Shown here: piece after piece, positions 7,180 through 49,330 of the stretch
How positions within the stretch are numbered: the first letter of the stretch is position 1
Layout: every line of letters starts with the position of its first letter
NCBI GenBank assembly: GCA_013329215.1
Contig: DUKS01000012.1
Coordinates: forward strand, 1-57,385
Source: Nanobdellota archaeon
GTDB taxonomy: Archaea; Nanobdellota; Nanobdellia; SCGC-AAA011-G17; GW2011-AR17
Direction of reading: 5' to 3'
Length of the DNA stretch: 57,385 nucleotides
Position numbers and translations under genes: made by a program
The notes under the pieces: model-generated
The model's input: the letters and a program-made list of their open reading frames with translations, nothing else
Told to the model about the DNA's origin: nothing
Database searches by the model: none

Positions 7180-7252
7180 TGAGGCCGCGAGGATTTGAAC
7201 CCCGGTTACAAACACCCCAAGCTTGTGTCCTACCAAGCTAGACTACGGCCCC
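7180..7252 (-). tRNA. tRNA-Pro (anticodon GGG), 73 nt, no encoded CCA, no intron
   Basis: Hand-folded cloverleaf from GGGGCCGTAGTCTAGCTTGGTAGGACACAAGCTTGGGGTGTTTGTAACCGGGGTTCAAATCCTCGCGGCCTCA. 7-bp acceptor; anticodon stem CAAGC/GTTTG; loop TTGGGGT with G37; T-loop TTCAAAT. Confidence 0.9.
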
Positions 7253-35613: not shown

Positions 35614-35997
35614 ATGAAAAAGAGGATTATATTAATAATGGCGATAATATCGCTTCTTGCCGCGGGCTGCTCGCAGTATAATGCGCAGCCTTACACAGCA
35701 CCTTCCGCCCCCGCGGTTTCGGAAGCCGCGCCAGGCACAGGAAGCACGGAAGCAGAAACAAATGCAGTAACAATAAGCAGCTTTGCATTCAACCCGCAGG
35801 AAATCACGATAAAAGCAGGAGGCTCAATAACCTGGACGAATCTCGACTCCGCGCCCCATACAGTTAAGTTCGAAGGTTTTGAATCAGAAAGGATGGGCAA
35901 CGGAGGCAGGTATGAGCATGCATTCATGGAGCCTGGAGAATATGATTATATCTGTAGCATTCACCCGTCAATGAAAGGGAAGGTGATTGTGCAATGA
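35614..35997 (+). CDS. Blue-copper (cupredoxin, plastocyanin/amicyanin-like) lipoprotein
   Basis: Lipobox LLAAGC. Type-1 Cu ligands in SAPHTV and YICSIHPSMKG. Confidence 0.8.
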   Translation: MKKRIILIMAIISLLAAGCSQYNAQPYTAPSAPAVSEAAPGTGSTEAETNAVTISSFAFNPQEITIKAGGSITWTNLDSAPHTVKFEGFESERMGNGGRYEHAFMEPGEYDYICSIHPSMKGKVIVQ

Positions 35998-36260
35998 GCG
36001 GAGAAAAATTTGACGCAGGCATGGCACCAAAGAAATGCATCTGCATTTCATGCCCCACATACAAGGATTGCGGGGAATTGGCATTCTGCCTGTCAAAAAA
36101 AGAGGCATGCAAGGCAATAACTGAAGAAAAAGGCTGCCTGTGCCAGTCCTGCCCTGTGCATGAAGCAATGAGTTTCAGGCACGCATATTATTGTACAAGC
36201 GGCGGAGAAAAGCACCAGACAACAAAAACAGAGAAGGCCCGCTACGCAAGAAAGCAGTAA
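35994..36260 (+). CDS. DUF2769-like Cys-rich small protein (paralog 1)
   Basis: CICISCPTYKDCG..FCL..C..EEKGCLCQSCPVH..YYC. Confidence 0.6.
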   Translation: MSGEKFDAGMAPKKCICISCPTYKDCGELAFCLSKKEACKAITEEKGCLCQSCPVHEAMSFRHAYYCTSGGEKHQTTKTEKARYARKQ

Positions 36261-36274
36261 AGGTGAAATAAAAT

Positions 36275-36490
36275 ATGGCAGGAAAAGAACCAAGGTGCAT
36301 TTGCGGCTCATGCCCCAGCTTTAATGAATGCGGCGCAAAGGCGTTCTGCTTTGATGAAACAGGGAAAAGCAAGTGCATAAAAGAAGAAAAAGGCTGCTTG
36401 TGCCCGTCATGCCCTGTGCAGGATAAATTTAAGTTCAGCCACACATATTACTGCATAAGGGGAAGCGACAAAAAGCAGGGCAAAAAATGA
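36275..36490 (+). CDS. DUF2769-like Cys-rich small protein (paralog 2)
   Basis: CICGSCPSFNECG..FCF..C..EEKGCLCPSCPVQ..YYC, colinear with paralog 1. Confidence 0.6.
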   Translation: MAGKEPRCICGSCPSFNECGAKAFCFDETGKSKCIKEEKGCLCPSCPVQDKFKFSHTYYCIRGSDKKQGKK

Positions 36491-37269
36491 AATGGAAATG
36501 CTCTGTCTGCGGATATGTGCATGAAGGCAAAAGCCCGCCGAAGGAATGCCCGCAGTGCAGCTCCGGCGCAGGAGAATTTGTAAGGGATGCGCCAGGGAAA
36601 AAGCTGGCTTATGACGGAAAAAAATTCGATGTCCTGCTGATTAACGGAAGCTCGCACAATGCGCACAACACAAGCCTGCTTGCAGACATTGCAGAAGGCG
36701 AACTGAAAAAAAGAAAAATAAGCTGCAGGCGCTTTGACCTGAACAGGCTGCAGATATACCACTGCTGGTGCTGCTACAGCATGGAAGACAAGGCATGCAC
36801 TTACCCGTGCAGGAACCAGCTTGACGATGCGCCCGCCCTGCATGAAATGCTTCTTCAGGCAAAAGCTGTCATCGTAGTAAGCCCCATAAACTGGAACAAC
36901 ATGTCTGCGCGGCTCAAGGATTTCCTTGACAGGCTGACATGCATAGAGAACATGCCCCTGCTGGGGAAGAAAGCGCCGTGCATAGGAAAGATTGCCGCTG
37001 TTCTCATAAACGGGCATGAAGACGGCGCAATGAAGACAGCAATGGACATTTTCCTTTATTTCGAGCAGATGGGATTCATTCTTGCCCCGTTCGGCTTTGC
37101 GTACAGGACACACGGCGGGCAGTTCAATGCAAAGGAAGACAATGGCTTCTTCAGGGGGGACAGGAAAATAAAAAAGGATATCGAAGGCGTTGTCCATAAT
37201 GTTGCAGAGATGATTAAGCTCGGCATTGAAAAAAAAGCAGAAGGCAGGATAAAAGAGGTGTGCGAGTAA
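36487..37269 (+). CDS. Rubredoxin-like zinc ribbon fused to a flavodoxin-like FMN reductase / iron-sulfur flavoprotein
   Basis: WKCSVCGYVHEG..PKECPQC, then VLLINGSSHNAHNTS and the compact Cys cluster HCWCCYSMEDKACTYPC. Confidence 0.65.
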   Translation: MKWKCSVCGYVHEGKSPPKECPQCSSGAGEFVRDAPGKKLAYDGKKFDVLLINGSSHNAHNTSLLADIAEGELKKRKISCRRFDLNRLQIYHCWCCYSMEDKACTYPCRNQLDDAPALHEMLLQAKAVIVVSPINWNNMSARLKDFLDRLTCIENMPLLGKKAPCIGKIAAVLINGHEDGAMKTAMDIFLYFEQMGFILAPFGFAYRTHGGQFNAKEDNGFFRGDRKIKKDIEGVVHNVAEMIKLGIEKKAEGRIKEVCE

Positions 37270-37482
37270 ATGCTGAACAATATCTCATATTACCTGATTC
37301 TCGGCAGGCCCCTGATATTCTATCTCGGGCTTTTGACTTTAACTTCGCTTCTTACAACAGCAACGCTCGGAGCGCTTGTGATTAAGGGCAGGATAAAATT
37401 CAAATACCATAAGGCGCTTGCAATAACCACAGTCTGCATAGCGCTTACGCACGGAACGCTGGCGTTCCTGGCCTATCTGTAA
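37270..37482 (+). CDS. Small two-helix membrane protein
   Basis: 70 aa with two hydrophobic helices. Starts immediately after the upstream stop. Confidence 0.4.
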   Translation: MLNNISYYLILGRPLIFYLGLLTLTSLLTTATLGALVIKGRIKFKYHKALAITTVCIALTHGTLAFLAYL

Positions 37483-37593
37483 CTGCATAAAATCAGTAAA
37501 CTATTTTCACTTCGTTCAAAAGTTCACCCACTACGTTCGTAAACTATAAAAAACACCAGCCTATATCATATCTGTCAAAAAGGGGATGATACC

Positions 37594-38172
37594 ATGAAAA
37601 CAACCGAAAACCTGTCAAAAGCATTTGCAGGCGAGTCAATGGCAAGGAACCGCTACACGTTTTTTGCAGCTATAGCAAGAAAAGAGGGATACGAGCAGAT
37701 AGCCGAGATATTCACAATGACTGCCGACAACGAAAAAGAGCACGGAAGCTGGTTCTTCAGGATGGCTAACGAGCTCAAGAAAGGCGACAAAAAGCTTGCA
37801 GAGATTAAGGTTGAAGCGCCTGTGAATACTGCATTGGGAACAACAGCAGACAACCTCATGGAAGCAATACACGGTGAAAACATGGAGCATACAAAGCTTT
37901 ATCCTGAATATGCAGACACAGCAGAAAAAGAGGGATTCAAGGCAATCGCGGCAAGAATCAGGGCTATTGCAAAGGCAGAATCGCACCATGAAGAGAGGTA
38001 TGCAAAGCTTTTGGCTGAGCTGAAAGCAGGGACTTTGTTCAAAAAGAACGAGCCAGTTGCGTGGATGTGCAGGGAATGCGGGTATGTGCATATAGGGAAA
38101 GAGCCGCCTGCAAAGTGCCCGTCATGCGACCATGCAAAGGGATTTTACCAGATAAAGTGCGAGAGCTATTAA
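37594..38172 (+). CDS. rbr: Rubrerythrin
   Basis: Di-iron four-helix motifs (FAGESMARNRY, EKEH, ENMEH, ESHHEERY) plus a C-terminal rubredoxin CRECG..CPSC. Confidence 0.9.
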   Translation: MKTTENLSKAFAGESMARNRYTFFAAIARKEGYEQIAEIFTMTADNEKEHGSWFFRMANELKKGDKKLAEIKVEAPVNTALGTTADNLMEAIHGENMEHTKLYPEYADTAEKEGFKAIAARIRAIAKAESHHEERYAKLLAELKAGTLFKKNEPVAWMCRECGYVHIGKEPPAKCPSCDHAKGFYQIKCESY

Positions 38173-39756: not shown

Positions 39757-41141
39757 ACAGAAAAGCGGTTGCTGTGCTTGCTATATCCGCAATCGGGTTC
39801 CTTGTGGCGATTATATTATTCTATAACAAGGCCATCAACCTTGTCCCGGGCCCGCCTGCCGAATACCTCGGCGAAACCCAGGTCAAGGTGTATGGAGCAT
39901 ACATTGAGGGGGAAAGGCAGCTGCTTTACATTGACATGGCTGCAGAATATGCATTTGACGCTGCAGGCGGGGCTGAAAAGCTAAGCGCAGCGAATGACGG
40001 ATTCCTGGTAAGGTTCGGGCTTGAATTCTCAGGATACCTGGACAAGTTTAACAGCATGTTTAACGCAGGCTTAAACATTTCAAATTACACATTTTATGCT
40101 GACAATACGGGAATATGGGGGGTCTGCAACAAGGACCTGAACCTGACAACAGAGCTTTACGATTATAAGTTCAGGCCTAACTTCAGGGTTGCTGCAAAGA
40201 ACAGGCTGCCGCAGGAAGTGCAGCAGCACTATGAAGAGCAGGCTCAGGAAGCTCCTGCAGAGGAGCCTGTGCAGGAAGTGCCGGCAGAGGAAGAAACGCC
40301 AGTAGAGCTTGTTTCCGGCAATGTAAAATTCGTTGTAATGAGCGATATCCACACATTCCCGGAGGGTGGCCGGGCTTTAAGGATAGCGGCCGCAGATGCT
40401 GTAAAAGCATTAAACCCGGACCTGGTGGTTATGACCGGCGACATTGTGTCAGGCGACCCGGATACAACACTTGAATCAAGAGTAACAGCAATGTGGAGCC
40501 TGTTTGACACTGAAACAAGAAGCAGGCTGGGCAGCATACCTATTGCAGCCCTCGGCGGGAACCATGACATGTATACATCCCAACTATTGGAGGGATACAC
40601 AAATTACTGGAATGAACATCGGCCCGCCCTTGATGTAACAGGCAATTACCCGCTTTATTATTCATTTGACTTCAACAATGTGCATTTTGTCATGCTTAAG
40701 AGCAACAGGGCGCGTATGGAAGAGTCGCAGCTCGAATGGCTCGCAGATGACCTCGGCAATGCAAAATCCGAAGGCAAGGCTTCATTGGTGTTTTCCCATT
40801 ACGCCCTTGCCGCCATGAAACTAAACGACCCGGATGTGCTGCAGCCAAATGCAAGGCTTAAGGACATCTTAAAGCAGAACAATATTATAGCATTCATACA
40901 TGGCGACACGCATGTCTTTTTCAGGGGACTGACAGACGGGATTAATGTAATAAATCTAGCGTCTGTTGCCGGCGTAAAAAGAAAGCTGGCCGGCGCAGAA
41001 ACGAACACGCCGCGTATGATAATGGTCGGGGAAATAAGCAACGGGCAATTAAGCACTTATGAGCTCATAGAGCCGGATTATCTCACGCAAAGGTTTGACG
41101 AAAGCGTGATTGCGGGCATAAGGCCACCAGGCTTTAGCTAG
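39753..41141 (+). CDS. Membrane-anchored extracytoplasmic calcineurin-like metallophosphoesterase
   Basis: N-terminal TM helix. Motifs VVMSDIH, MTGDIVSGD, GGNHD, FSHYAL, IHGDTH. ATGA overlap with the upstream gene. Confidence 0.7.
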   Translation: MNRKAVAVLAISAIGFLVAIILFYNKAINLVPGPPAEYLGETQVKVYGAYIEGERQLLYIDMAAEYAFDAAGGAEKLSAANDGFLVRFGLEFSGYLDKFNSMFNAGLNISNYTFYADNTGIWGVCNKDLNLTTELYDYKFRPNFRVAAKNRLPQEVQQHYEEQAQEAPAEEPVQEVPAEEETPVELVSGNVKFVVMSDIHTFPEGGRALRIAAADAVKALNPDLVVMTGDIVSGDPDTTLESRVTAMWSLFDTETRSRLGSIPIAALGGNHDMYTSQLLEGYTNYWNEHRPALDVTGNYPLYYSFDFNNVHFVMLKSNRARMEESQLEWLADDLGNAKSEGKASLVFSHYALAAMKLNDPDVLQPNARLKDILKQNNIIAFIHGDTHVFFRGLTDGINVINLASVAGVKRKLAGAETNTPRMIMVGEISNGQLSTYELIEPDYLTQRFDESVIAGIRPPGFS

Positions 41142-42348
41142 CCGCCCTTCTTTTGATTTTCCTTGCAACGCCAAAAACAGGGAACCCTATTGTCAGCGCA
41201 GCCAGAATGTCTGACAAAGGCCTGCCAAGCCCGAGCATTGCATATAGGCCCCTTACAATGGAATAGCCTGAAGCGAGATACTCTCCGATAATGTCAATTA
41301 ACCCGCCATTTACCTTATCTATCTGCTGCCCGCTCTTTTTCTCCAGGGCCTGCTTTTCAATATCATCCGCCTTTGCAAGTATCTCTGCCCTATCATTAAA
41401 GTAATCAGCATCTGCAAGGCCTGTTTCAATCCTGCTGCAGATATCCTCCGCAGTTCCGTAATGCCCCAATGAGATTTCTGCTTCCGCCTGTGTAATTAAG
41501 ACGGAATATTCCTGCCCCATATCTTCCTGAAGCCTCTCACTAAAGGAGTCCGTCATTTCAATCATGCGCGAAGAATAATACTTGTGCCCGCCCCTTAACT
41601 TAAAAGCAAGCCTTTGGCCGCATGCGTGTGCCTCACCATATTTTTCAGACAAGAGGTATGTTTCGCATTCGGCTAATTCATCCAGTGCTTCACAGTAAGA
41701 AGAATTCTGCGATGCATTCCAGTCTGTATAAGCATGTATCCCTGTGCATACAGCTGTGCCCAGCAGACCGGCAGCAGCAAGCCCGAGAAGCGGGTATTTC
41801 AGGCGCGCCATTGCTGGATTAAACCCACCCCCGCCTTCTCTATCGCTTCTTCCCGCGCCATGCTGCGCCCTGTACCTTGATGAAAAGTCGTTTGCAATGT
41901 CTTCTATCGGCTTTGAACTGTCTATGGTGTATCCTGCTTTGCCTGCCAATGCATCCGCAAACAATATAGCTTTCAGCTGCTGGATATTCCTTGCTTTCAG
42001 CACAAGCGATTTCGAGCCTCTTGCTTCAAGCTCGCGGATGTAAACAGCAGCCGCCATTTTGTCCGCTGCATCAGGATCGCCTGCGCTAATGCCTGAAGAA
42101 GATATCGCAACCGGTGTTTCACAACAGGCATAAAGCAGACCTCCCCCCAAATCATGCCGGCTGCAGCCTGCGTAATCCGCGCATATAACCTCTTTCACGC
42201 TATAAGCGCCAACCATTCTGCCGAGCACGCCGCGGTCCATTGACCCGACAAAATAATCCAGCAGCAGCTGCTTGTCAAGGCTCAACCCCGTGTTTTTTGG
42301 CCTGCGTTTTCCTGCGATTATCTGTGCCGCACAGTCAACATCCCGCAT
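41134..42348 (-). CDS. Hypothetical membrane protein: ~200-aa cytoplasmic N-domain, a TM helix, ~150-aa outside domain and a C-terminal hydrophobic segment. Last gene of the E1/JAB operon.
   Basis: ATG 42348 overlaps the AsnC-like gene stop by 14 nt. TM YPLLGLAAAGLLGTAVCTGIHAY. The longer track ORF (to 42492) overlaps the regulator gene. Confidence 0.5.
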   Translation of the reverse strand: MRDVDCAAQIIAGKRRPKNTGLSLDKQLLLDYFVGSMDRGVLGRMVGAYSVKEVICADYAGCSRHDLGGGLLYACCETPVAISSSGISAGDPDAADKMAAAVYIRELEARGSKSLVLKARNIQQLKAILFADALAGKAGYTIDSSKPIEDIANDFSSRYRAQHGAGRSDREGGGGFNPAMARLKYPLLGLAAAGLLGTAVCTGIHAYTDWNASQNSSYCEALDELAECETYLLSEKYGEAHACGQRLAFKLRGGHKYYSSRMIEMTDSFSERLQEDMGQEYSVLITQAEAEISLGHYGTAEDICSRIETGLADADYFNDRAEILAKADDIEKQALEKKSGQQIDKVNGGLIDIIGEYLASGYSIVRGLYAMLGLGRPLSDILAALTIGFPVFGVARKIKRRAAS

Positions 42349-42760
42349 CTTCCTGCTTAACCTCCTCAACAATAAAATGCGTACGTTTTGAACTGCAAAG
42401 CCTTGCAGCCTGCTCCTCAAATTCATAATATGCTCCCATATTGCGGAATATCGCCGTTGCCATGACAGCAAACCTGCCTGAAGACACTGCAAGCGAGTTG
42501 GTGTTCCGGCTCTTTTTTAAAAATGACAAAAGCCTCCTGCTTTTCGGGTGGAACAGCATGAGCGCGTGCACTTCAAAACCGAGCGCCTTAAAATCAGGGA
42601 GAGTTGTGTATTTCAGCATCTTAGCCTCCGCGCGCTTAAGCGCCCTCATTGCAGTTTGCCTTGACATGCCCAGCTTGCTTGCAATCCCGGACAGCCTCTG
42701 CCTGGGGTCACGCCTAAGCTCCCTTACTACCTCATTCTCATAACCGTTCAATTGCACCAC
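42335..42760 (-). CDS. Lrp/AsnC-type HTH regulator inside the E1/JAB operon
   Basis: HTH RLSGIASKLGMSRQTAMRALKRAEA followed by a RAM-like beta-alpha-beta (FEVHALMLF..). Apparent GTG start overlapping the E1-like gene by 23 nt. Confidence 0.6.
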   Translation of the reverse strand: MVQLNGYENEVVRELRRDPRQRLSGIASKLGMSRQTAMRALKRAEAKMLKYTTLPDFKALGFEVHALMLFHPKSRRLLSFLKKSRNTNSLAVSSGRFAVMATAIFRNMGAYYEFEEQAARLCSSKRTHFIVEEVKQEDAGC

Positions 42761-44081
42761 CCTGTTTATGGCATTTGCAGCCTCTGATTATATTGCATGC
42801 GCACTGCCTTTCGGCAGGCAGGTAAGACACTTTTTCTGTAAGCTGTTTTTTTGAGAAATACAGCATCTGCCTCCCGGAACTTTCAAGCCCGGTTAAAGAA
42901 GCACCCAGCTCGGCCGCCATCATCGCGCCCGCAAACGCATTGCACATAACAATGTTCGATTCCTGCATTGTATTGCAGGCCTGCGGCTGCGTGCTTGCCT
43001 GTTCAACATTTCCTCTTCTGCATTCCAGGCAAATGTTGTGATTGTATATGTCAAGCCTTGCCGTAAAAGGGCCAACGCCGGCATCGATTAAAACAATGTT
43101 GTTTGCAACAGCATACCTGCTCAAAAGCTCCCTTGCGCCCCAATTGTCAACGCACGAGAGCACAGCAGAATATTTTTTGCCTGCAGTTTTTGCTTCATTC
43201 TCATCAAAAAACCTGCCGAACGCGCGCATATTCGCTCCAAGCAGGCTTTCGAGCCTTTGCTTAAGCACAGCAGCCTTATTCCTGCCTATTGCATCATAGT
43301 ACAGCACCTGCCTGTTTAGGTTTGTCGCATCAATATCATCGCCGTCATAAACATCAAAAGGAATCCTGAGGCAGGCAAGGTTCAAAGCAGCGTACGTGCC
43401 TATCCCGCCTGCGCCAACAACAAGCACCCGCCCGCTTTTCAGCCTGGGAAACGAAACAGCCTTTTCTGCCCTTACAGAATCCGCTATTGACATTTTTCTG
43501 AAAAACCTGCCTTTCGCAAAAAGATTATAGTTTAAAACTCCGGAAACAGCCTCATCCCCTTCAAGCCCAAGAAGCGCTTTTCTTATTTCGTCCAGTGCAA
43601 TTGCAGCGATTAAGCCTGACGAAAACGAGCCCTGCTCTTTTCCATTATACCTGCGCATGGCTGCTGTTTCCAGGCAAGCATGGCCTTTTTCCCCACTGTA
43701 GCCTGCATATATTGATGCGGAAATATCATCGCTCGAAGCGCTTACAAAAAGCCTTGCCTTCCCTGCATATTCACATGCAGCTTGTTTTGAGGCTTCATTG
43801 TTTGTGAAATCAGCAACAACATCAGCAGGCCCTATGCTTCCGGCGTTTGCGGCAGTATTCAGGCGTATTTCCGGGTTTATTTCACTAATGAGTCTTTCAA
43901 GCGGTTTTTTAAACAAGTGCCGCTGCCTATGATTTTGCTGCACCAGTGTTATGTTTCCTATCCCCAGGCCAGCCATGTACAGCAATGCGTAATCACTTAC
44001 CATTGAATCCCCCACCAGCACAACACGGCTGTTTCTAAGTATAGCCTGGTCAAAAACAGATGACTGCCTTGTATAGTCCAT
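42738..44081 (-). CDS. E1-like (ThiF/MoeB/UBA superfamily) enzyme with tandem domains: degenerate N-terminal and intact C-terminal adenylation domain
   Basis: C-terminal half: RVLVVGAGGIGTYAALNLA, DGDDIDATNLNRQ, SCVDNWGAR, CLEC ... CACNIIRGCKC. N-terminal half: same fold pattern but GDSMVS replaces GxGxxG, and LVQQNHRQRHLF replaces DxDxxxxSNLxRQ. Confidence 0.8.
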   Translation of the reverse strand: MDYTRQSSVFDQAILRNSRVVLVGDSMVSDYALLYMAGLGIGNITLVQQNHRQRHLFKKPLERLISEINPEIRLNTAANAGSIGPADVVADFTNNEASKQAACEYAGKARLFVSASSDDISASIYAGYSGEKGHACLETAAMRRYNGKEQGSFSSGLIAAIALDEIRKALLGLEGDEAVSGVLNYNLFAKGRFFRKMSIADSVRAEKAVSFPRLKSGRVLVVGAGGIGTYAALNLACLRIPFDVYDGDDIDATNLNRQVLYYDAIGRNKAAVLKQRLESLLGANMRAFGRFFDENEAKTAGKKYSAVLSCVDNWGARELLSRYAVANNIVLIDAGVGPFTARLDIYNHNICLECRRGNVEQASTQPQACNTMQESNIVMCNAFAGAMMAAELGASLTGLESSGRQMLYFSKKQLTEKVSYLPAERQCACNIIRGCKCHKQGGAIERL

Positions 44082-44082
44082 A

Positions 44083-45081
44083 TTAGTTCACATTTGTAAC
44101 CCTGCTAATGCCCGGGGCTCCTGTTATTCTCTGTCTCTCAAACCGGCTGTCTGTGAGGAAAGCATACGGCTTTGCATTGCTCCTGTATTCCTCTGTGAGC
44201 ACAGCCCTTGCCTTTTCCATCAATGCCTCAAGCTGCAGCTTCGGATTGTCAGGATGCAGCCTTTTTATTGAGCCATAATCATACCTGCCTGTGCATATGC
44301 ACTGCAATGGCTTTCCGGCAGCAGGAAGCGAAGGGTGGCTGTAAGGGTTAAGCACATAGAGCTTGCCAAAGTCAACCGAATCCGCGTTCATGAATACAGG
44401 GGCGCCCACTTCTGCCTCTCCAAAGCTGTAGTAAGCGCCGTTCTTTCTCTCATAAAGGATGTAAGGCTGTATTTTTGTGAAAACATAGAAGCGACTGTCC
44501 ATTATCCTAAAGCCCACCTGCTTTTCATTGTCATAAAAAATCCCTTCTGCAATGCTGTCCAAAGCCATACGCAGGGGGCTGCCTGCCGCGCGTTTCCTTA
44601 TTTTTTTCTTATAATCCGCTTCAATATCACTTACTGCTGCTATGTGCGACAAGCCAAGATTAAAATTTCTTCCTCTAACAAAAATATCCCCCCGGCTGGA
44701 TTCAAAAAGCGGATACACCATAGAATTAAGAAAAAGCAGTTCCTTCTTTGGCAGGACATGCTCTGCTATCGCACCGCCGCCCACAGCGCCCGAAAGCTGC
44801 GTGATAACAAGCAGCGCAGGCTGCAAATGCGGGCTTTGTGTTCCGGATTCTGCCTTTGTCCTTATTGCGGAAAGCAGGCCCGAATGCATCCCTGATTTTG
44901 CCAGATAATCCTGCTCAAGCATCGGGATTGTTGTTTTTTGCACAAGCCCGATTCTGCATCCGAAAAAGTCCATATACGCGCCCCCATAGCCATTGCATGC
45001 CTGATAAACAGCAGGATAGACAATAACGCACGGGCCTTCTGAAAAATACCTGAAGAATGTGTCAGGAACAGGCATGCCCAT
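44083..45081 (-). CDS. Hypothetical protein; the C-terminal ~140 aa is a candidate E2 (UBC-like) domain
   Basis: YVLNPYSHPSLPAAGKPLQCICTGRY resembles the E2 HPN-loop-Cys signature. It is preceded by beta-strand-like segments (FYVFTKI, YILYERKNG, YYSFGEAEV) and followed by a helix. Inference only. Confidence 0.3.
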   Translation of the reverse strand: MGMPVPDTFFRYFSEGPCVIVYPAVYQACNGYGGAYMDFFGCRIGLVQKTTIPMLEQDYLAKSGMHSGLLSAIRTKAESGTQSPHLQPALLVITQLSGAVGGGAIAEHVLPKKELLFLNSMVYPLFESSRGDIFVRGRNFNLGLSHIAAVSDIEADYKKKIRKRAAGSPLRMALDSIAEGIFYDNEKQVGFRIMDSRFYVFTKIQPYILYERKNGAYYSFGEAEVGAPVFMNADSVDFGKLYVLNPYSHPSLPAAGKPLQCICTGRYDYGSIKRLHPDNPKLQLEALMEKARAVLTEEYRSNAKPYAFLTDSRFERQRITGAPGISRVTNVN

Positions 45082-46465
45082 CACCCGGATTAAGTGTTTT
45101 CATATTCTCTGCAAGCTGTTTTGATTTTCCAATGCACCTGCCCGCATACTCTCCTGTGCTGATTATGCCTAATGCCTCATTCACAGCATCCTTGTGTATT
45201 TGCTCCAACACCCCCGATTCCTCCAGCCTTGCAATGCATTCTTCAACCTTGTCCAGCCTTTTTTCATAGTCTGCTGCGTTCCCGTCAAACACACCGGACA
45301 ATGCGGCAAACATGTCCACTACAGCCTTGTCAGCATCCATATGATTTCTGTGGCCATGCCTGTAAAAGTCAACTGAACCGAGGAAAAGCTGCACATACAA
45401 AAGGTGCAGTTCCCTTGCGCCATTAAAGTATTCATTGTTTGACTTGTAAGGTGCCTGGGAAACAATTGCTTCCTGCTTTTCCCCCGGATTTAATATGCCT
45501 TCAAGCCGTTTTTTGGCAGGTAGCCTGCTGCAGGCAGGAATATGCCTTGCTGTTTCTTCCTGCGAAATGGATTCAACAGACTTTATGCGCGACGCAAAGC
45601 GCAATGCAGATTCCCGGTCTCCAAGATTAATCCTGAAAATGCCATGGCTGCTTTTGAGCTCAACGCTGTTATCCCTTGCTATTGCTTCAAATGCAGGCCT
45701 CTCCCTCTCCGCCATTGCAAGCGGCTGCGCAAACTGCAGCTTTCTTTTGAATAGCTCTGTGTCTTTCAGCCTGGCGGCATGCTCTCTTTGATTGTCAAGC
45801 GAGAAAGAATATTTTTCCCCAATCTCCGCAAGATGCTCCTGCGGCAGGCAAACATTCGGCATTGAGCAGGCTGCCAGCCCAAGCCCGGCTTTTGTGTGCT
45901 TCAATTCCCCGCCCTTAATGCTGAACAGCTCTGCAAGATATTTGCCATTGCCTTTCGTATAAGCCCCTGCATTTATCACTATGCTTAAGAACGAAGAAGG
46001 CAGAACCTCTTCAACTGATTTTATGCAGTATTCGGTTCCCGCCTCAAGCATTATGCGCCTGCCCTGCATTGTCTGCGCATTAAACAGGTCCAGGCACGGG
46101 CCGCCTGCATTAAAATCCCAGCGCCCGGCCTTTTCATTATGCTTTTTCATTGCAGCAAGCTTTGACTTTATATGTTCGTGGTCTGTATGCGAATGAAAAA
46201 GCCCGTGCACGCCGTGGCTGTGCCACATGCCAACAAGGTGTGCGCCTGCCTTGTATAGGTCCATGCACGGGAACTCTGATGCAGAAGCCCTTGATATTGA
46301 GCCGTACTGCTCGGGAAAAAAGAAGCCCGTAATCCTGCCGCTGCCTTTTTCTGAATAGAGATACCCCATGCATTCTATATCTTTTCCAGCAAAGCCTGAG
46401 ATTTCCCTTGCATAAAGGCACATTTCGGCGAATACAGCCGCTTCCAGATTCACGTATTCTTTCAT
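45062..46465 (-). CDS. JAB/MPN (JAMM) metalloprotease with a ~370-aa C-terminal extension of unknown function
   Basis: Upstream Glu in KDIECMGYLY and a complete HSH-x7-S-x2-D (WHSHGVHGLFHSHTD, nt 46181-46222). ATG 46465 forms an ATGA overlap with the upstream stop. Confidence 0.8.
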   Translation of the reverse strand: MKEYVNLEAAVFAEMCLYAREISGFAGKDIECMGYLYSEKGSGRITGFFFPEQYGSISRASASEFPCMDLYKAGAHLVGMWHSHGVHGLFHSHTDHEHIKSKLAAMKKHNEKAGRWDFNAGGPCLDLFNAQTMQGRRIMLEAGTEYCIKSVEEVLPSSFLSIVINAGAYTKGNGKYLAELFSIKGGELKHTKAGLGLAACSMPNVCLPQEHLAEIGEKYSFSLDNQREHAARLKDTELFKRKLQFAQPLAMAERERPAFEAIARDNSVELKSSHGIFRINLGDRESALRFASRIKSVESISQEETARHIPACSRLPAKKRLEGILNPGEKQEAIVSQAPYKSNNEYFNGARELHLLYVQLFLGSVDFYRHGHRNHMDADKAVVDMFAALSGVFDGNAADYEKRLDKVEECIARLEESGVLEQIHKDAVNEALGIISTGEYAGRCIGKSKQLAENMKTLNPGDGHACS

Positions 46466-46887
46466 CTGCACCCTACATCATCGTAGCGCTTTACAGCCAT
46501 GTCAAGGCAGTCATAAGCTATGCCGTCAGCTGTATGCCGCTGGTCAATATAGCCCGCAACCCTGTCATCAAGGCGTATGATTTCTGTTTCAGCGCCTATG
46601 CGCTTTTTTTTGGTGTTGTCTGCATTATACACGCGCACTTCGCAAAATGTGTTTGCGCCGTTGTGCGCTGCAAGGTATTCTTTTATTTCAGGAGCGGCCC
46701 CTTCCTGGCTGTTGCCTGCAATTTCTTCAATGACTTCCCTGAACGTGGCTTTTCTCAGCCTGTCATCAAGCTCTGCATAAACAGCCCTTGACTCGTAATC
46801 AGCTTTTTCAGCTGCGTCTTTCGCGCCCGCCGCCTTTTGCCTGTTCACTTCTGTGTTCACTATGCCCACAAGTTTGTTCTCACCCAT
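46462..46887 (-). CDS. Hypothetical protein, first gene of the E1/JAB operon
   Basis: 141 aa from ATG 46887, with AGGAG 9 nt upstream; alternatives are ATG 46896 and TTG 46917. No recognised motif. C-terminus is ..KRYDDVGCR. Confidence 0.45.
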   Translation of the reverse strand: MGENKLVGIVNTEVNRQKAAGAKDAAEKADYESRAVYAELDDRLRKATFREVIEEIAGNSQEGAAPEIKEYLAAHNGANTFCEVRVYNADNTKKKRIGAETEIIRLDDRVAGYIDQRHTADGIAYDCLDMAVKRYDDVGCR

Positions 46888-47081: not shown

Positions 47082-47726
47082 TTACCTATAGCATTTTTTC
47101 AAGTTTTTTTTTAATTTCCTGAAGTCTTTTTCAACTGTCTTTTCCGCCTTTTTCACGTCCTTCTCAACATCTTCAACTTCCTCAAGCTCATGCAAGTGGT
47201 GCTTGCCTGTGGGCTTTTCATAGAACGGAATTGCCTTGACTAGCCTTGGCGCCCTTGCAACCGGCCTCATAATCCTTAAAACGCGCTCTGTCCTGCTTAT
47301 CTTGCCTGCGGCTTCCGCCTCTTTTATCAGCTTCTCGCTTTCGCCAAACAGCTTTGCAAACTCTTCCCTACCCTGGACAATCGTGTGCAGTATTGACTGG
47401 CCTTCCTTGACCTCTGCAGAGAACCTTGCAAGGAAAACAACTTCCTCAACAAGCCTGAATACCAGGACGAACGGAAAAACAGCTATTATGTCAATCCAGC
47501 ATTCCTTAAAGAAGGTCTTGAAGTTTCTTATCCTGTTGTACTTGAACCCGAGGTCCACGATGAATAAAGAGATTATGGCATAATCCCCAATCTCAAGGTA
47601 AAGTGCATAATGCTCTGCAAACTCCTTGAAAAAGATGTTAATTATTATGATGCCTGCGAGCAGGATTAATGCATAAGGTATAGCCCTGTCCACGAAGGAT
47701 TCCACCTTGTGAAGCCATAGTTTCAT
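47082..47726 (-). CDS. Membrane protein resembling an isolated voltage-sensor (S1-S4-like) domain, with no pore domain
   Basis: Three TM helices including the S3-like WIDIIAVFPFVLVF. An Arg-every-third segment RVLRIMRPVARAPRLVK appears after a ~45-aa insert. Charged C-terminal tail. Confidence 0.35.
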   Translation of the reverse strand: MKLWLHKVESFVDRAIPYALILLAGIIIINIFFKEFAEHYALYLEIGDYAIISLFIVDLGFKYNRIRNFKTFFKECWIDIIAVFPFVLVFRLVEEVVFLARFSAEVKEGQSILHTIVQGREEFAKLFGESEKLIKEAEAAGKISRTERVLRIMRPVARAPRLVKAIPFYEKPTGKHHLHELEEVEDVEKDVKKAEKTVEKDFRKLKKNLKKCYR

Positions 47727-47999: not shown

Positions 48000-48578
48000 T
48001 TACGACAGCTTCAGCGTCCTCTGCTCTGTGAAAATGACATTCTTGTTTTTTAAGAAAGCAACAATCCTTGCCTCGCTTTCTGCAGGCACCAAAATGGAGC
48101 CCCTTCCCGCAACTTTCCCTTTTATTTCCGCAAGCAGGCCCTCGCCTTTTTTTCTCCCGTATAATGCGTATGAAAACATCACTTTCTCAGAAGCGGTCTT
48201 ACCTGCAAGCAAATAGGTTATAAGAAAGTAAGGCGCAACGCCGAGAAGCTCTTTTATTGATTTATTATGCCTTACGCTGAATCCCTCGTGAAGCACTGAA
48301 AGAAGCACTGGCTGAAACAGCTCCTCTGCAAACATCGGCTCTGTATGAAGGCTGATGCCTAACGAATCTGCCGCCTTTTTTGCCGTGTATAAAATGTTTT
48401 CCGCAGCCCTGTAATTCTTTTCCCTGAAAAAGCCGATTACATCTATGTCATTAGGATGCTCCTTTCCTTTCACTGCAGAGCCGAATATGAAAATGTCAGC
48501 AAGCAGCTTTTCTTTTTTTAGCAAGCTCTGCAATTCGTTTAAAAGCTTCTTCCTCTGTTGGGATGTCAATTGCTCCAT
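48000..48578 (-). CDS. Minimal nucleotidyltransferase (MNT)-domain protein
   Basis: FIFGSAVKGKEHPNDIDVIGF (GS..D.D motif). Confidence 0.65.
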   Translation of the reverse strand: MEQLTSQQRKKLLNELQSLLKKEKLLADIFIFGSAVKGKEHPNDIDVIGFFREKNYRAAENILYTAKKAADSLGISLHTEPMFAEELFQPVLLSVLHEGFSVRHNKSIKELLGVAPYFLITYLLAGKTASEKVMFSYALYGRKKGEGLLAEIKGKVAGRGSILVPAESEARIVAFLKNKNVIFTEQRTLKLS

Positions 48579-48894
48579 TTTTAAAAGCCTCCGTTACCTT
48601 TTCCCTTACTATTTCAAGCTCTTCCCTTGAAAGCTCCCTTGTATAAGTTCTCCTGTAAGTGCTGAACAGCCTGTCTGTAATGTCGTAAAGCGCAGGAATA
48701 TGCGCCTTAAGCATTTCAAACCGCTCATTGTGATCATTTGGAGCATGCTTCAGCTTTTCCTGCAGCGCCAGGTCATCAACTGCAAAAAGCGCCTTGAAAT
48801 AGTTTGAGCCTGACTCTGCGCGCATCCCCATCTTTTCCGCCAATAATGCAATGAGGAAATAGTTCCTTGCCTTTTCTTTAAGCACTTCAGCCAT
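48496..48894 (-). CDS. Helical HEPN-like partner of the MNT protein
   Basis: All-helical 132 aa. Candidate R-x6-H (RFEMLKAH). 83-nt overlap with the MNT gene. Assignment is tentative. Confidence 0.4.
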   Translation of the reverse strand: MAEVLKEKARNYFLIALLAEKMGMRAESGSNYFKALFAVDDLALQEKLKHAPNDHNERFEMLKAHIPALYDITDRLFSTYRRTYTRELSREELEIVREKVTEAFKNGAIDIPTEEEAFKRIAELAKKRKAAC

Positions 48895-49058: not shown

Positions 49059-49330
49059 TGCGGCGGAAGCCCGGAATTGTCTCATACTTTAACAATGGTT
49101 AATCCCTCGCTTTCCTCGGCCCTGCTAACCCGCAAGCGTTATCACAGTTGGTTAAGGCTGCTCCATTCCTGGCCTGACCTGATTCCCGAAAGCAACGACC
49201 CTGCAGGACAAGGTGTCAACGTACGGCAAGGGACCAAGGCCAAAGCATGACCCGCTCCCAGGCGATAGCCCCTTCATAGGTTCGTTTAAGGTGATAGGGT
49301 AGAACCAACACCCCGGCATATCCACCGCAT
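49059..49330 (-). ncRNA. ffs: Signal recognition particle RNA (archaeal 7S-type), ends approximate
   Basis: Minus-sense CAGGTCAGGCCAGGAATGGAGCAGCC (nt 49156-49181) matches the universal helix-8 motif with a GGAA tetraloop. The 5' GCGGTGGA pairs with the 3' TTCCGCCGC. TATA box lies ~25 nt upstream. Confidence 0.8.

Follow-up and report, generated by a model that had tools for sequence, protein, structure and literature searches.

E1 enzymes that pair an inactive adenylation domain (IAD) with an active one (AAD), whether in a single chain or as a heterodimer, were held to be a hallmark of eukaryotes until the bacterial BilD was reported in 2023-24. Do archaea encode such an enzyme as well? The question is raised by a 447 amino acid (aa) open reading frame (ORF) on contig DUKS01000012.1 of a Nanobdellota archaeon (GenBank assembly GCA_013329215.1). 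The ORF is ATG-initiated and lies on the minus strand at 42738..44081 of the 57,385-nucleotide stretch of DNA that was analysed, referred to below as the window. The first-pass annotation of this DNA had described the product as a pseudo-dimeric E1, with a degenerate and an intact adenylation domain joined in one polypeptide. We consider it likely that the gene encodes the E1 that belongs to a ubiquitin-like conjugation cassette of four genes on a DPANN archaeal chromosome, and that this E1 is an intramolecular pseudo-dimer.

An E1-like gene on a DPANN chromosome

The motifs quoted for the 447-aa protein are all present in the minus-strand ORF. In its N-terminal half, GDSMVS (aa 24-29) lies within RVVLVG...LLYMAGLGIGNITLV. 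The C-terminal half contains GAGGIG (aa 223-228), DGDDIDATNLNRQ (aa 246-258), CVDN (aa 310-313), CLEC (aa 351-354), C369 within PQACNT, and the pair CAC and CKC (aa 427-437). The public gene call for the same protein (P0001, 421 aa, 100% identical) begins at M27, a start that drops the conserved DY(S/T)RQ motif and the first strand of the fold. Judged from its homologues, which retain this segment, the true start of the E1 is M1 (44081).

A homologue search yielded 46 full-length members of the E1 family, at 25-54% identity. Wherever a homologue carries a source name, it comes from a metagenome-assembled genome (MAG) of a DPANN archaeon, labelled Nanoarchaeota, Nanoarchaeia, Woesearchaeota or simply 'archaeon'. 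The full-length E1 loci are likewise DPANN MAGs throughout; two are labelled 'Methanosarcinales' in binned assemblies, a label that is unconfirmed. A scan of species-representative genomes, based on one peptide pattern, gave 270 confirmed loci, of which the best 80 were kept. PADLOC v2, applied to the E1, matched only its Cap2 'E1-E2' models, by way of the ThiF domain.

The window is archaeal chromosomal DNA. It encodes an archaeal signal recognition particle (SRP) RNA (49060-49328, minus strand, 112 bits) and a tRNA-Pro(GGG) (7180-7252, minus strand), and GC content is flat across the E1 locus, at about 0.46-0.49. On these grounds a mobile element or a virus was rejected as the source of the window. 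The host is a DPANN archaeon and not a bacterium.

An intact adenylation domain and a degenerate one

The C-terminal half of the protein (AAD, aa 206-447, 42741..43466, minus strand) is readily recognised as an adenylation domain. Pfam identifies ThiF (PF00899) in aa 213-429 of the E1 and nowhere else in the chain, with an E-value of 3.6e-38, above the cut-off. Matches to PDB sequences, which include ThiF, SAE2, Cap2, MccB, MoeB, UBA3 and Uba1, are confined to this half. When the whole family profile is used as the query, the top PDB match is MccB (E 9.5e-30) and PaaA also scores; the BilD entry 8tyz is absent from the 60 listed of the 82 PDB sequence matches of this profile. Ten residues of the C-terminal half are invariant in all 46 family members: G223, G225, G228, D246, N254, R257, Q258, K269, D312 and C369. 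The earlier statement that this half carries every ThiF/E1 hallmark thus holds, both by domain match and by the conservation of its catalytic residues.

The N-terminal half (IAD, aa 1-205, 43467..44081, minus strand) is ThiF-like by profile comparison. For this comparison the family alignment was cut at residue 205 and the two halves were compared with each other as profiles. hhalign aligned them end to end and in register over 180 columns, with a probability of 99% and an E-value of 6e-18. Against the PDB, the N-half profile matched Escherichia coli ThiF (2.9e-15) and MoeB (4e-14) from the first residue onwards, as well as the IAD of Uba1 (residues ~12-148), NAE1 and SAE1. Pfam ThiF was found at E <= 1 in all 18 of the N-halves scanned, with a best value of 1.5e-17; the N-half of the window E1 itself scores 4.6e-4, under the curated cut-off. 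Other Rossmann families appear sporadically among the 18, in at most six members each and at E >= 0.0015.

What has been lost from the N-terminal half is lost across the family. Its sole invariant residues in the 46 sequences are G24 and G40. The nucleotide loop is degenerate (GDSMVS), and the counterpart of the D-x-D...NLNRQ...K block has suffered a 7-residue deletion, with neither acidic nor basic residues conserved in what remains. Where the C-terminal half has the catalytic Asp of 'CVDN', the N-terminal half has Thr or Ser ('DFTNN'), which in the window E1 is T93. By sequence comparison, the N-terminal half is a degenerate copy of the ThiF/E1 adenylation domain, and the degeneration is family-wide. 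This agrees with the first-pass annotation, which had proposed from the window sequence that the N-terminal half repeats the fold pattern but lacks the nucleotide loop and catalytic block, and had suggested aligning both halves to ThiF, MoeB and Uba1.

One feature of the N-terminal half does remain conserved. Position 5 is Arg in 39 of the 46 sequences and Lys in six others, and Q6 is kept in 40; both residues (R5-Q6, 44064..44069, minus strand) belong to an N-terminal 'DY(S/T)RQ' motif that aligns with the 'RYSRQ' motif of ThiF and MoeB. Because this motif stands at the expected position of a partner-domain arginine finger, Arg5 of the IAD is a candidate for a finger that is probably donated to the AAD active site.

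Predicted packing of the two halves

AlphaFold2, run on the 46-sequence alignment, returned a model of the E1 with a mean predicted local distance difference test score (pLDDT) of 86.9 and a predicted template-modelling score (pTM) of 0.90. The weak regions of the model are aa 131-140, which form the crossover-equivalent loop of the N-terminal half, aa 351-380, and the last ~20 residues. In a Foldseek search of the PDB, the best whole-chain matches are single-chain, two-domain IAD-AAD E1s. These are UBA7 (8oif, E 3.6e-18), BilD (8tyz_A and 8tz0, E about 1e-16 to 5e-18, TMq 0.67-0.68, TMt 0.60, at about 15% identity), and UBA6 and Uba1 (TMq 0.60-0.64). Since a monomer of ThiF or MoeB would reach across only about half of the query, full-length matches of this kind, together with the high pTM, support the IAD/AAD type of packing. 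The model is thus consistent with an intramolecular IAD/AAD pseudo-dimer with one active site, as the first-pass annotation had anticipated. The model, the Foldseek ranking and the N-half profile all speak against a conventional MoeB preceded by an unrelated N-terminal domain.

The crossover loop and its cysteines

If the AAD is the active domain, where is its catalytic cysteine? The first-pass annotation had named two candidates, C369 and the CLEC region, and family conservation separates them. C369 is the only cysteine that is invariant in the family (46/46), and it aligns with Cys184 of ThiF; it is the putative catalytic cysteine. C351 and C354 of CLEC are kept in 39 of the 46 sequences. 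Their pattern matches that of C427, which is likewise found in 39, while C429 occurs in 29 and C435 and C437 in 20. These conservation patterns suggest that C351/C354 and C427/C429 likely form a structural Cys4 zinc site, with the C-terminal Cys cluster (C427, C429, C435, C437; 42771..42803, minus strand) as its second half. CLEC was therefore rejected as the catalytic site, its cysteines being assigned as zinc ligands instead.

The segment from the CLEC zinc pair to C369 constitutes the crossover loop (42975..43031, minus strand). It is short throughout the family, with 10-28 residues between the CxxC pair and the invariant Cys in the 46 sequences and 14 in the window E1. Since this gap leaves so little room, the E1 has no CYS domain, and indeed the helical domain of that name (~80 aa) was not found in any of the 46 family members. 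DSSP assigns only loop and short helices to aa 347-377 of the model, and pLDDT is low at aa 362-364, which is consistent with a mobile crossover loop. Beyond the ThiF match, which ends at aa 429 of 447, lie just the Cys cluster and a short tail. Because the chain ends 18 residues past that match, the E1 has no UFD. The first-pass annotation had likened the overall architecture to Uba1-type E1s and to the E1s of bacterial ubiquitination-like operons. The likeness holds for the inactive-active tandem but does not extend to the CYS domain, which both Uba1-type E1s and BilD possess and which is absent here.

A conserved, putative conjugation cassette

The E1 gene is the last of four minus-strand genes that overlap or abut. 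In order, they encode a ~141-aa protein, a JAB peptidase, a 333-aa protein and the E1. The TGA of the small-protein gene overlaps the ATG of the JAB gene, and the junction between the 333-aa gene and the E1 gene reads TAA-T-ATG. To describe the conservation of this arrangement we draw on 17 loci, taken from species-representative genomes and from contigs encoding homologues, that were scanned with family hidden Markov models. Genes for the small protein, a 333-aa-type protein and the E1 run co-linearly in the window, L003-L009, L011, L013-L015 and L084; the sequence of L010 breaks off upstream. Of the 17 loci, 13 have an adjacent JAB gene, and in 15 a 333-aa-type gene adjoins the E1 gene.

The small protein (141 aa from M11, 46462..46887, minus strand) is a putative precursor of a ubiquitin-like modifier. 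Its family has a single invariant residue, a Gly that closes a '...V/I-G' motif in 12 of 12 sequences and is followed by a tail of 0-18 aa. In the window this is Gly149 (46471-46473), and the tail is the dipeptide CR. The tail varies with the presence of a JAB. Every JAB-containing locus encodes 1-18 aa after the Gly (R, CR, GK, GR, FR, ICI, NGTA etc.), and in the two loci without a detected JAB the small protein stops exactly at '...LRSRVG*' (L007:4834-5178 and L084:4793-5140). The same behaviour of tail and peptidase is seen in BilA and BilC and in eukaryotic ubiquitin-like protein (Ubl) precursors (PMC10557695). Nothing else in the data speaks as strongly for the small protein as the putative modifier, and for the JAB as its putative processing enzyme, as this correlation of tail and JAB. 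Motif, size, gene order and co-occurrence further suggest that the modifier may be of the beta-grasp type.

The JAB/JAMM metallopeptidase (about 467 aa, 45062..46471, minus strand, probable ATG at 46465) belongs to the Prok-JAB type. Its JAMM motif is intact, comprising E33 and H84-S-H86-x7-S94-x2-D97. A C-terminal region of ~330 aa (aa ~135-469) has no family match and is kept only in the closest loci, L004 and L005. A divergent cassette, L014, encodes a JAB-like protein without the HxH...S..D motif (L014:2746-4140 and L014:7241-8314 are the genes noted there), and the gene after its E1 gives a weak transglutaminase-core (papain-like) match (E 0.0016). A different enzyme may have taken the place of the processing peptidase in this cassette.

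The 333-aa protein (44083..45084, minus strand, probable start M4 at 45075) is a putative E2-like protein. An exhaustive search of representative sequences returned 398 family members at E <= 1e-3, all unannotated. Across 46 diverse members, the conserved part is a C-terminal domain of ~150 aa (aa 181-333 in the window protein) with an invariant G, F and Y-x-H-P, followed after 9-13 residues by a C. In the window these are Y248-x-H250-P251 and C264. The Y-x-H-P...C arrangement resembles the HPN...C core of E2 enzymes, and this motif, together with size, gene order and co-occurrence, makes the protein a putative E2.

The middle of the same family (aa ~143-207) also gives a weak J-domain-like match (DnaJA1, E 0.05). 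The two loci without a detected JAB, L007 and L084, encode a separate DnaJ-domain protein of ~100 aa two to three genes upstream of the cassette (L007:3710-4006, L084:3751-4074). These signs of a J-domain may reflect a chaperone link, or chance.

Proposed mechanism and alternative readings

Domain homology, residue conservation, a predicted pseudo-dimer fold, a conserved cassette and the link between tail and JAB are the observations on which a mechanism can be built. Its chemical steps and targets, and the identities of the E2 and the beta-grasp partner, are drawn from these with BilABCD and the canonical E1s as the analogy. The IAD, having lost ATP binding and catalysis, would serve as a structural partner that replaces the second subunit of ThiF or MoeB, and would probably contribute Arg5; ATP-Mg would be bound by the AAD. 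First, the JAB would trim the two-residue tail CR from the modifier and expose Gly149, which the AAD would then adenylate. Cys369, carried by a short and flexible crossover loop that the Cys4 zinc site anchors, would attack the adenylate to form a thioester. The modifier would next move to Cys264 of the HP...C protein acting as E2, and finally be attached to amines of its targets. The JAB may also reverse the conjugation.

Several results weigh against a complete conjugation cascade of this kind. The small-protein family matches nothing in Pfam, PDB sequence profiles, PADLOC or NCBIfam, and the E2-like family gives nothing significant in the same four collections. hhalign comparisons with Ubl and E2 sequences were uninformative for both partners. 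For the small protein against ubiquitin, NEDD8, ThiS and MoaD, the probability was at most 0.3%; for the 333-aa protein against the eukaryotic E2s UBE2D2, UBE2N, UBE2I and UBE2L3, it was 1.8%, the HP falling on HPN and the C on the catalytic Cys. The AlphaFold2 model of the E2-like protein, from a 4-sequence alignment, is unusable (pLDDT 44), and Foldseek on that model returned noise. The window JAB scores 24.6 bits against Pfam Prok-JAB (E 2.4e-5), just under the 25-bit cut-off. The most distant relatives of the E1 (P0044-P0046; locus L086:321-1610) lack the CxxC pair and have another gene context. Moreover, an invariant crossover-loop Cys is found in ThiF and MoeB too, which do not transfer a modifier to an E2. 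Because neither partner has a family match and the E2-like model failed, the E2 and beta-grasp assignments are ones that we infer.

The three distant E1 relatives, P0044-P0046, adjoin MBL-fold/TPR and AMP-binding genes and not a Ubl/E2/JAB cassette. These tandem E1 relatives may differ in function.

Could the cassette work without an E2? The alternative that survives best, which we regard as unlikely, is an E2-independent system of the small archaeal modifier protein (SAMP)/UbaA type or a sulfur-carrier system. In such a system the E1 would activate the small protein for direct conjugation or for thiocarboxylate formation, the JAB would process or remove the modifier, and the 333-aa protein would be a target, an adaptor or an unrelated enzyme. 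The closest sequence relatives of the AAD fit this reading, since they include ThiF, MoeB, Uba4 and the SAMP-activating UbaA model, as do the alignment of C369 with C184 of ThiF and the failure to detect E2 homology in the 333-aa protein. Archaeal SAMP systems also run on an E1 and a JAMM peptidase without any E2, as is the case for UbaA and HvJAMM1 of Haloferax. However, the sulfur-carrier and SAMP E1s known so far consist of one domain, in many cases with a rhodanese added, and form homodimers, whereas the DPANN E1 has an IAD and no rhodanese. None of the cassettes examined contains MoaE, ThiG or tRNA-thiolation genes. The 333-aa gene, moreover, is linked to the E1 gene as tightly as the modifier gene is, and keeps its invariant His-Pro...Cys.

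A peptide-modifying adenylating enzyme of the MccB/PaaA type, as found in pathways for ribosomally synthesised and post-translationally modified peptides (RiPPs), is far less probable still. The small protein would then be a precursor modified at its C-terminus, and the JAB its maturation protease. MccB is indeed the top PDB match of the family profile, with PaaA scoring too, and the small protein does bear a processed C-terminal tail. Yet MccB and PaaA are homodimers with an N-terminal peptide clamp (RRE-type), while the N-terminal half of the DPANN E1 is ThiF-like from residue 1, and Foldseek ranks canonical two-domain E1s first. The supposed precursor is a conserved protein of ~140 aa with an invariant Gly, not a short peptide, and the cassette has no conserved transporter, immunity or tailoring genes.

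That the N-terminal half is an unrelated NAD- or FAD-binding Rossmann domain fused to a homodimeric MoeB/ThiF is scarcely credible: a few homologues do have weak precomputed or sub-threshold Pfam matches (Shikimate_DH, ApbA, NAD_binding_7), but the N-half profile, Pfam and Foldseek contradict the idea directly, ThiF being the one family found in every N-half scanned, the ThiF/MoeB alignment beginning at the ThiF-specific RYSRQ and spanning the whole domain, and the model packing the halves as an E1 pseudo-dimer.

Comparison with known E1 systems

Read as the E1 of a ubiquitin-like cassette, the DPANN protein is most closely comparable to BilD, the E1 of the bacterial Type I/II BilABCD antiphage operons (PDB 8TYZ/8TZ0). 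The BilD structure comprises an IAD, an AAD and an alpha-helical CYS domain of ~80 aa that is inserted in the crossover loop and carries the catalytic Cys417 (PMC10557695). Arg9 of its IAD reaches the active site, and its zinc site consists of two crossover-loop and two C-terminal Cys (PMC10557695). Bil E1s have since been summarised as 'IAD-AAD-CYS' (PMC11601596), and the BilABCD mechanism includes pre-processing by a deubiquitinase (PMC10557695). The operon partners of BilD are BilA, a beta-grasp Ubl, BilB, an E2 with a UBC fold, and BilC, a JAB deubiquitinase. Like BilD, the DPANN E1 is predicted to be a single-chain IAD and AAD pseudo-dimer, lacks both a UFD and an FCCH domain, has an arginine near the N-terminus of its IAD, and combines two crossover-loop with two C-terminal Cys in its likely zinc site, an arrangement also of the SUMO-E1 type. 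Its cassette resembles the Bil operon in having a JAB, a putative small modifier in which a conserved Gly precedes a short tail, and a putative E2 that contains a Cys, and in having no E3.

There are also differences from Bil. In the DPANN E1 family the CYS domain is replaced by a loop of 10-28 aa, and the host is an archaeon rather than a bacterium. The DPANN 'E2' and 'Ubl' have no detectable sequence relationship to known families, and both the JAB and the E2-like protein carry long extra regions. Finally, Bil is an antiphage system; for the DPANN cassette, defence is one possible role.

Eukaryotic E1s (Uba1, UBA6, UBA7, and the heterodimers NAE1-UBA3 and SAE1-SAE2) share with the DPANN E1 the predicted pairing of IAD and AAD around one active site, and the SUMO and NEDD8 E1s share a structural zinc site with it as well. 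The DPANN E1, however, is less than half their size. It lacks the FCCH and SCCH (CYS) domains as well as a UFD for E2 recruitment, and its putative catalytic Cys is part of the crossover loop itself. All E1s known are stated to have their Cys in one of two places, the crossover loop or a helical domain built into that loop (PMC11601596).

In sequence, the AAD stands closest to ThiF, MoeB and MccB. A short crossover loop holding a reactive Cys is a feature of ThiF and UBA5, and C369, C184 of ThiF and C250 of UBA5 are placed alike. The zinc site is of the CxxC...CxxC type seen in ThiF, MoeB, UBA5 and Atg7. Those four enzymes are symmetric homodimers of active domains; in contrast, the DPANN E1 is predicted to have its partner domain fused in cis and catalytically dead. 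With its cis-fused IAD and its loop Cys, the DPANN E1 would therefore join the asymmetry of canonical E1s to a loop cysteine of the homodimeric ThiF/UBA5 type.

Operons that link the gene for a small modifier to those for an E1 and a JAMM peptidase are also found in other archaea, namely the SAMP/UbaA/HvJAMM1 system of Haloferax and the Ub-E1-E2-RING-Rpn11 operon of Caldiarchaeum subterraneum. The latter includes an E2 too, as the DPANN cassette putatively does, but it also has a RING E3, which the DPANN cassette lacks. The E1s of both systems are single-domain ThiF-like proteins. The Ubl and E2 proteins of the described archaeal systems, unlike the DPANN partners, are recognisable by sequence.

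Implications for E1 evolution

An inactive-plus-active tandem in a prokaryote is no longer new in itself, as it is already published for the bacterial BilD (2023-24; PMC10557695), and the novelty of the tandem layout is lowered accordingly. In the literature searched, coverage of which is incomplete, we found no description of an E1-E2-JAB system in DPANN archaea, Nanoarchaeota or Woesearchaeota. The same searches, with the same incomplete coverage, returned no description of an archaeal IAD-AAD E1, of a version without the CYS domain, or of the associated E2-like and modifier-like families.

A broader claim, which we hold tentatively, is that DPANN archaea may carry a previously unrecognised and complete ubiquitination-like cascade whose E2 and modifier have no detectable sequence link to known families. 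The E1 of this cascade would be simpler than any other pseudo-dimeric E1 known, with the catalytic Cys in an ancestral short crossover loop, and would represent a living intermediate between ThiF/MoeB-type and IAD-AAD-CYS E1s. If this is true, fusion of an inactive and an active domain in cis is found not only in Bacteria and eukaryotes but in Archaea too. If functional, the DPANN E1 family would not only extend the IAD/AAD layout to Archaea but also separate two features that are joined in every known canonical E1, a dead partner domain (present here) and a dedicated CYS domain (absent here). Such a separation would make it possible to test in which order the two features arose as E1s evolved.

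The locus may also be of practical use. A very small E1 (~50 kDa) would suit mechanistic work on how a loop cysteine serves an asymmetric E1, and the ~150-aa HP...C domain and the Gly-terminated ~140-aa protein are candidates for new E2 and Ubl families. Protein tagging in DPANN archaea, which are ultra-small and host-dependent, could bear on proteostasis, host interaction or antiviral defence.

Genomic neighbourhood

Downstream of the E1 gene lie a winged-helix gene and then a 452-aa ORF. The winged-helix (AsnC/MarR-like) protein (141 aa, 42335..42760, minus strand; Pfam HTH_24, E 4.7e-5) overlaps the 3' end of the E1 gene and is a possible regulator. Its conservation is limited to the closest loci (L004 and L005, 47-48% identity). 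The 452-aa ORF (41134-42492, minus strand) and the winged-helix gene share 158 nt. Within the ORF, conservation is confined to the C-terminal half (aa 224-449, with a hydrophobic end), which in L004 and L005 occurs as a gene of 218-224 aa. The start of the ORF is probably mis-assigned; otherwise, the window protein is extended at its N-terminus. The gene immediately upstream of the cassette encodes a 214-aa protein (47082-47726, minus strand) with a weak ion-transport (voltage-sensor-like) Pfam match, which is syntenic in L004 and L005 and 64% identical there.

Farther upstream, a nucleotidyltransferase gene (Polbeta, NTP_transf_2, DUF6932; 48000-48894, minus strand) overlaps a 132-aa ORF without a Pfam match. 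The two look like a toxin-antitoxin pair of the MNT/HEPN type. The syntenic locus L001 has a Polbeta and HEPN pair as well as a PIN and RHH pair.

Does the neighbourhood reveal what the cassette is for? The flanks vary from locus to locus. Toxin-antitoxin-like genes of the nucleotidyltransferase/HEPN and PIN/RHH kinds lie near the window and L001 copies; the L003 and L084 cassettes have housekeeping genes as neighbours, namely Topo VI, eIF-1A and MetRS in L003 and ribosomal proteins, FtsZ and Spt5 in L084. With such mixed flanks, gene context does not decide between housekeeping and defence, and the biological role of the cassette could be cellular regulation, quality control, or antiviral defence as in Bil.

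On the plus strand of the window, at 35994-38172, lies an oxidative-stress cluster that encodes two tandem Cys-rich DUF2769 paralogues, a rubredoxin-FMN reductase fusion and a rubrerythrin. This cluster recurs near the cassette of L001.

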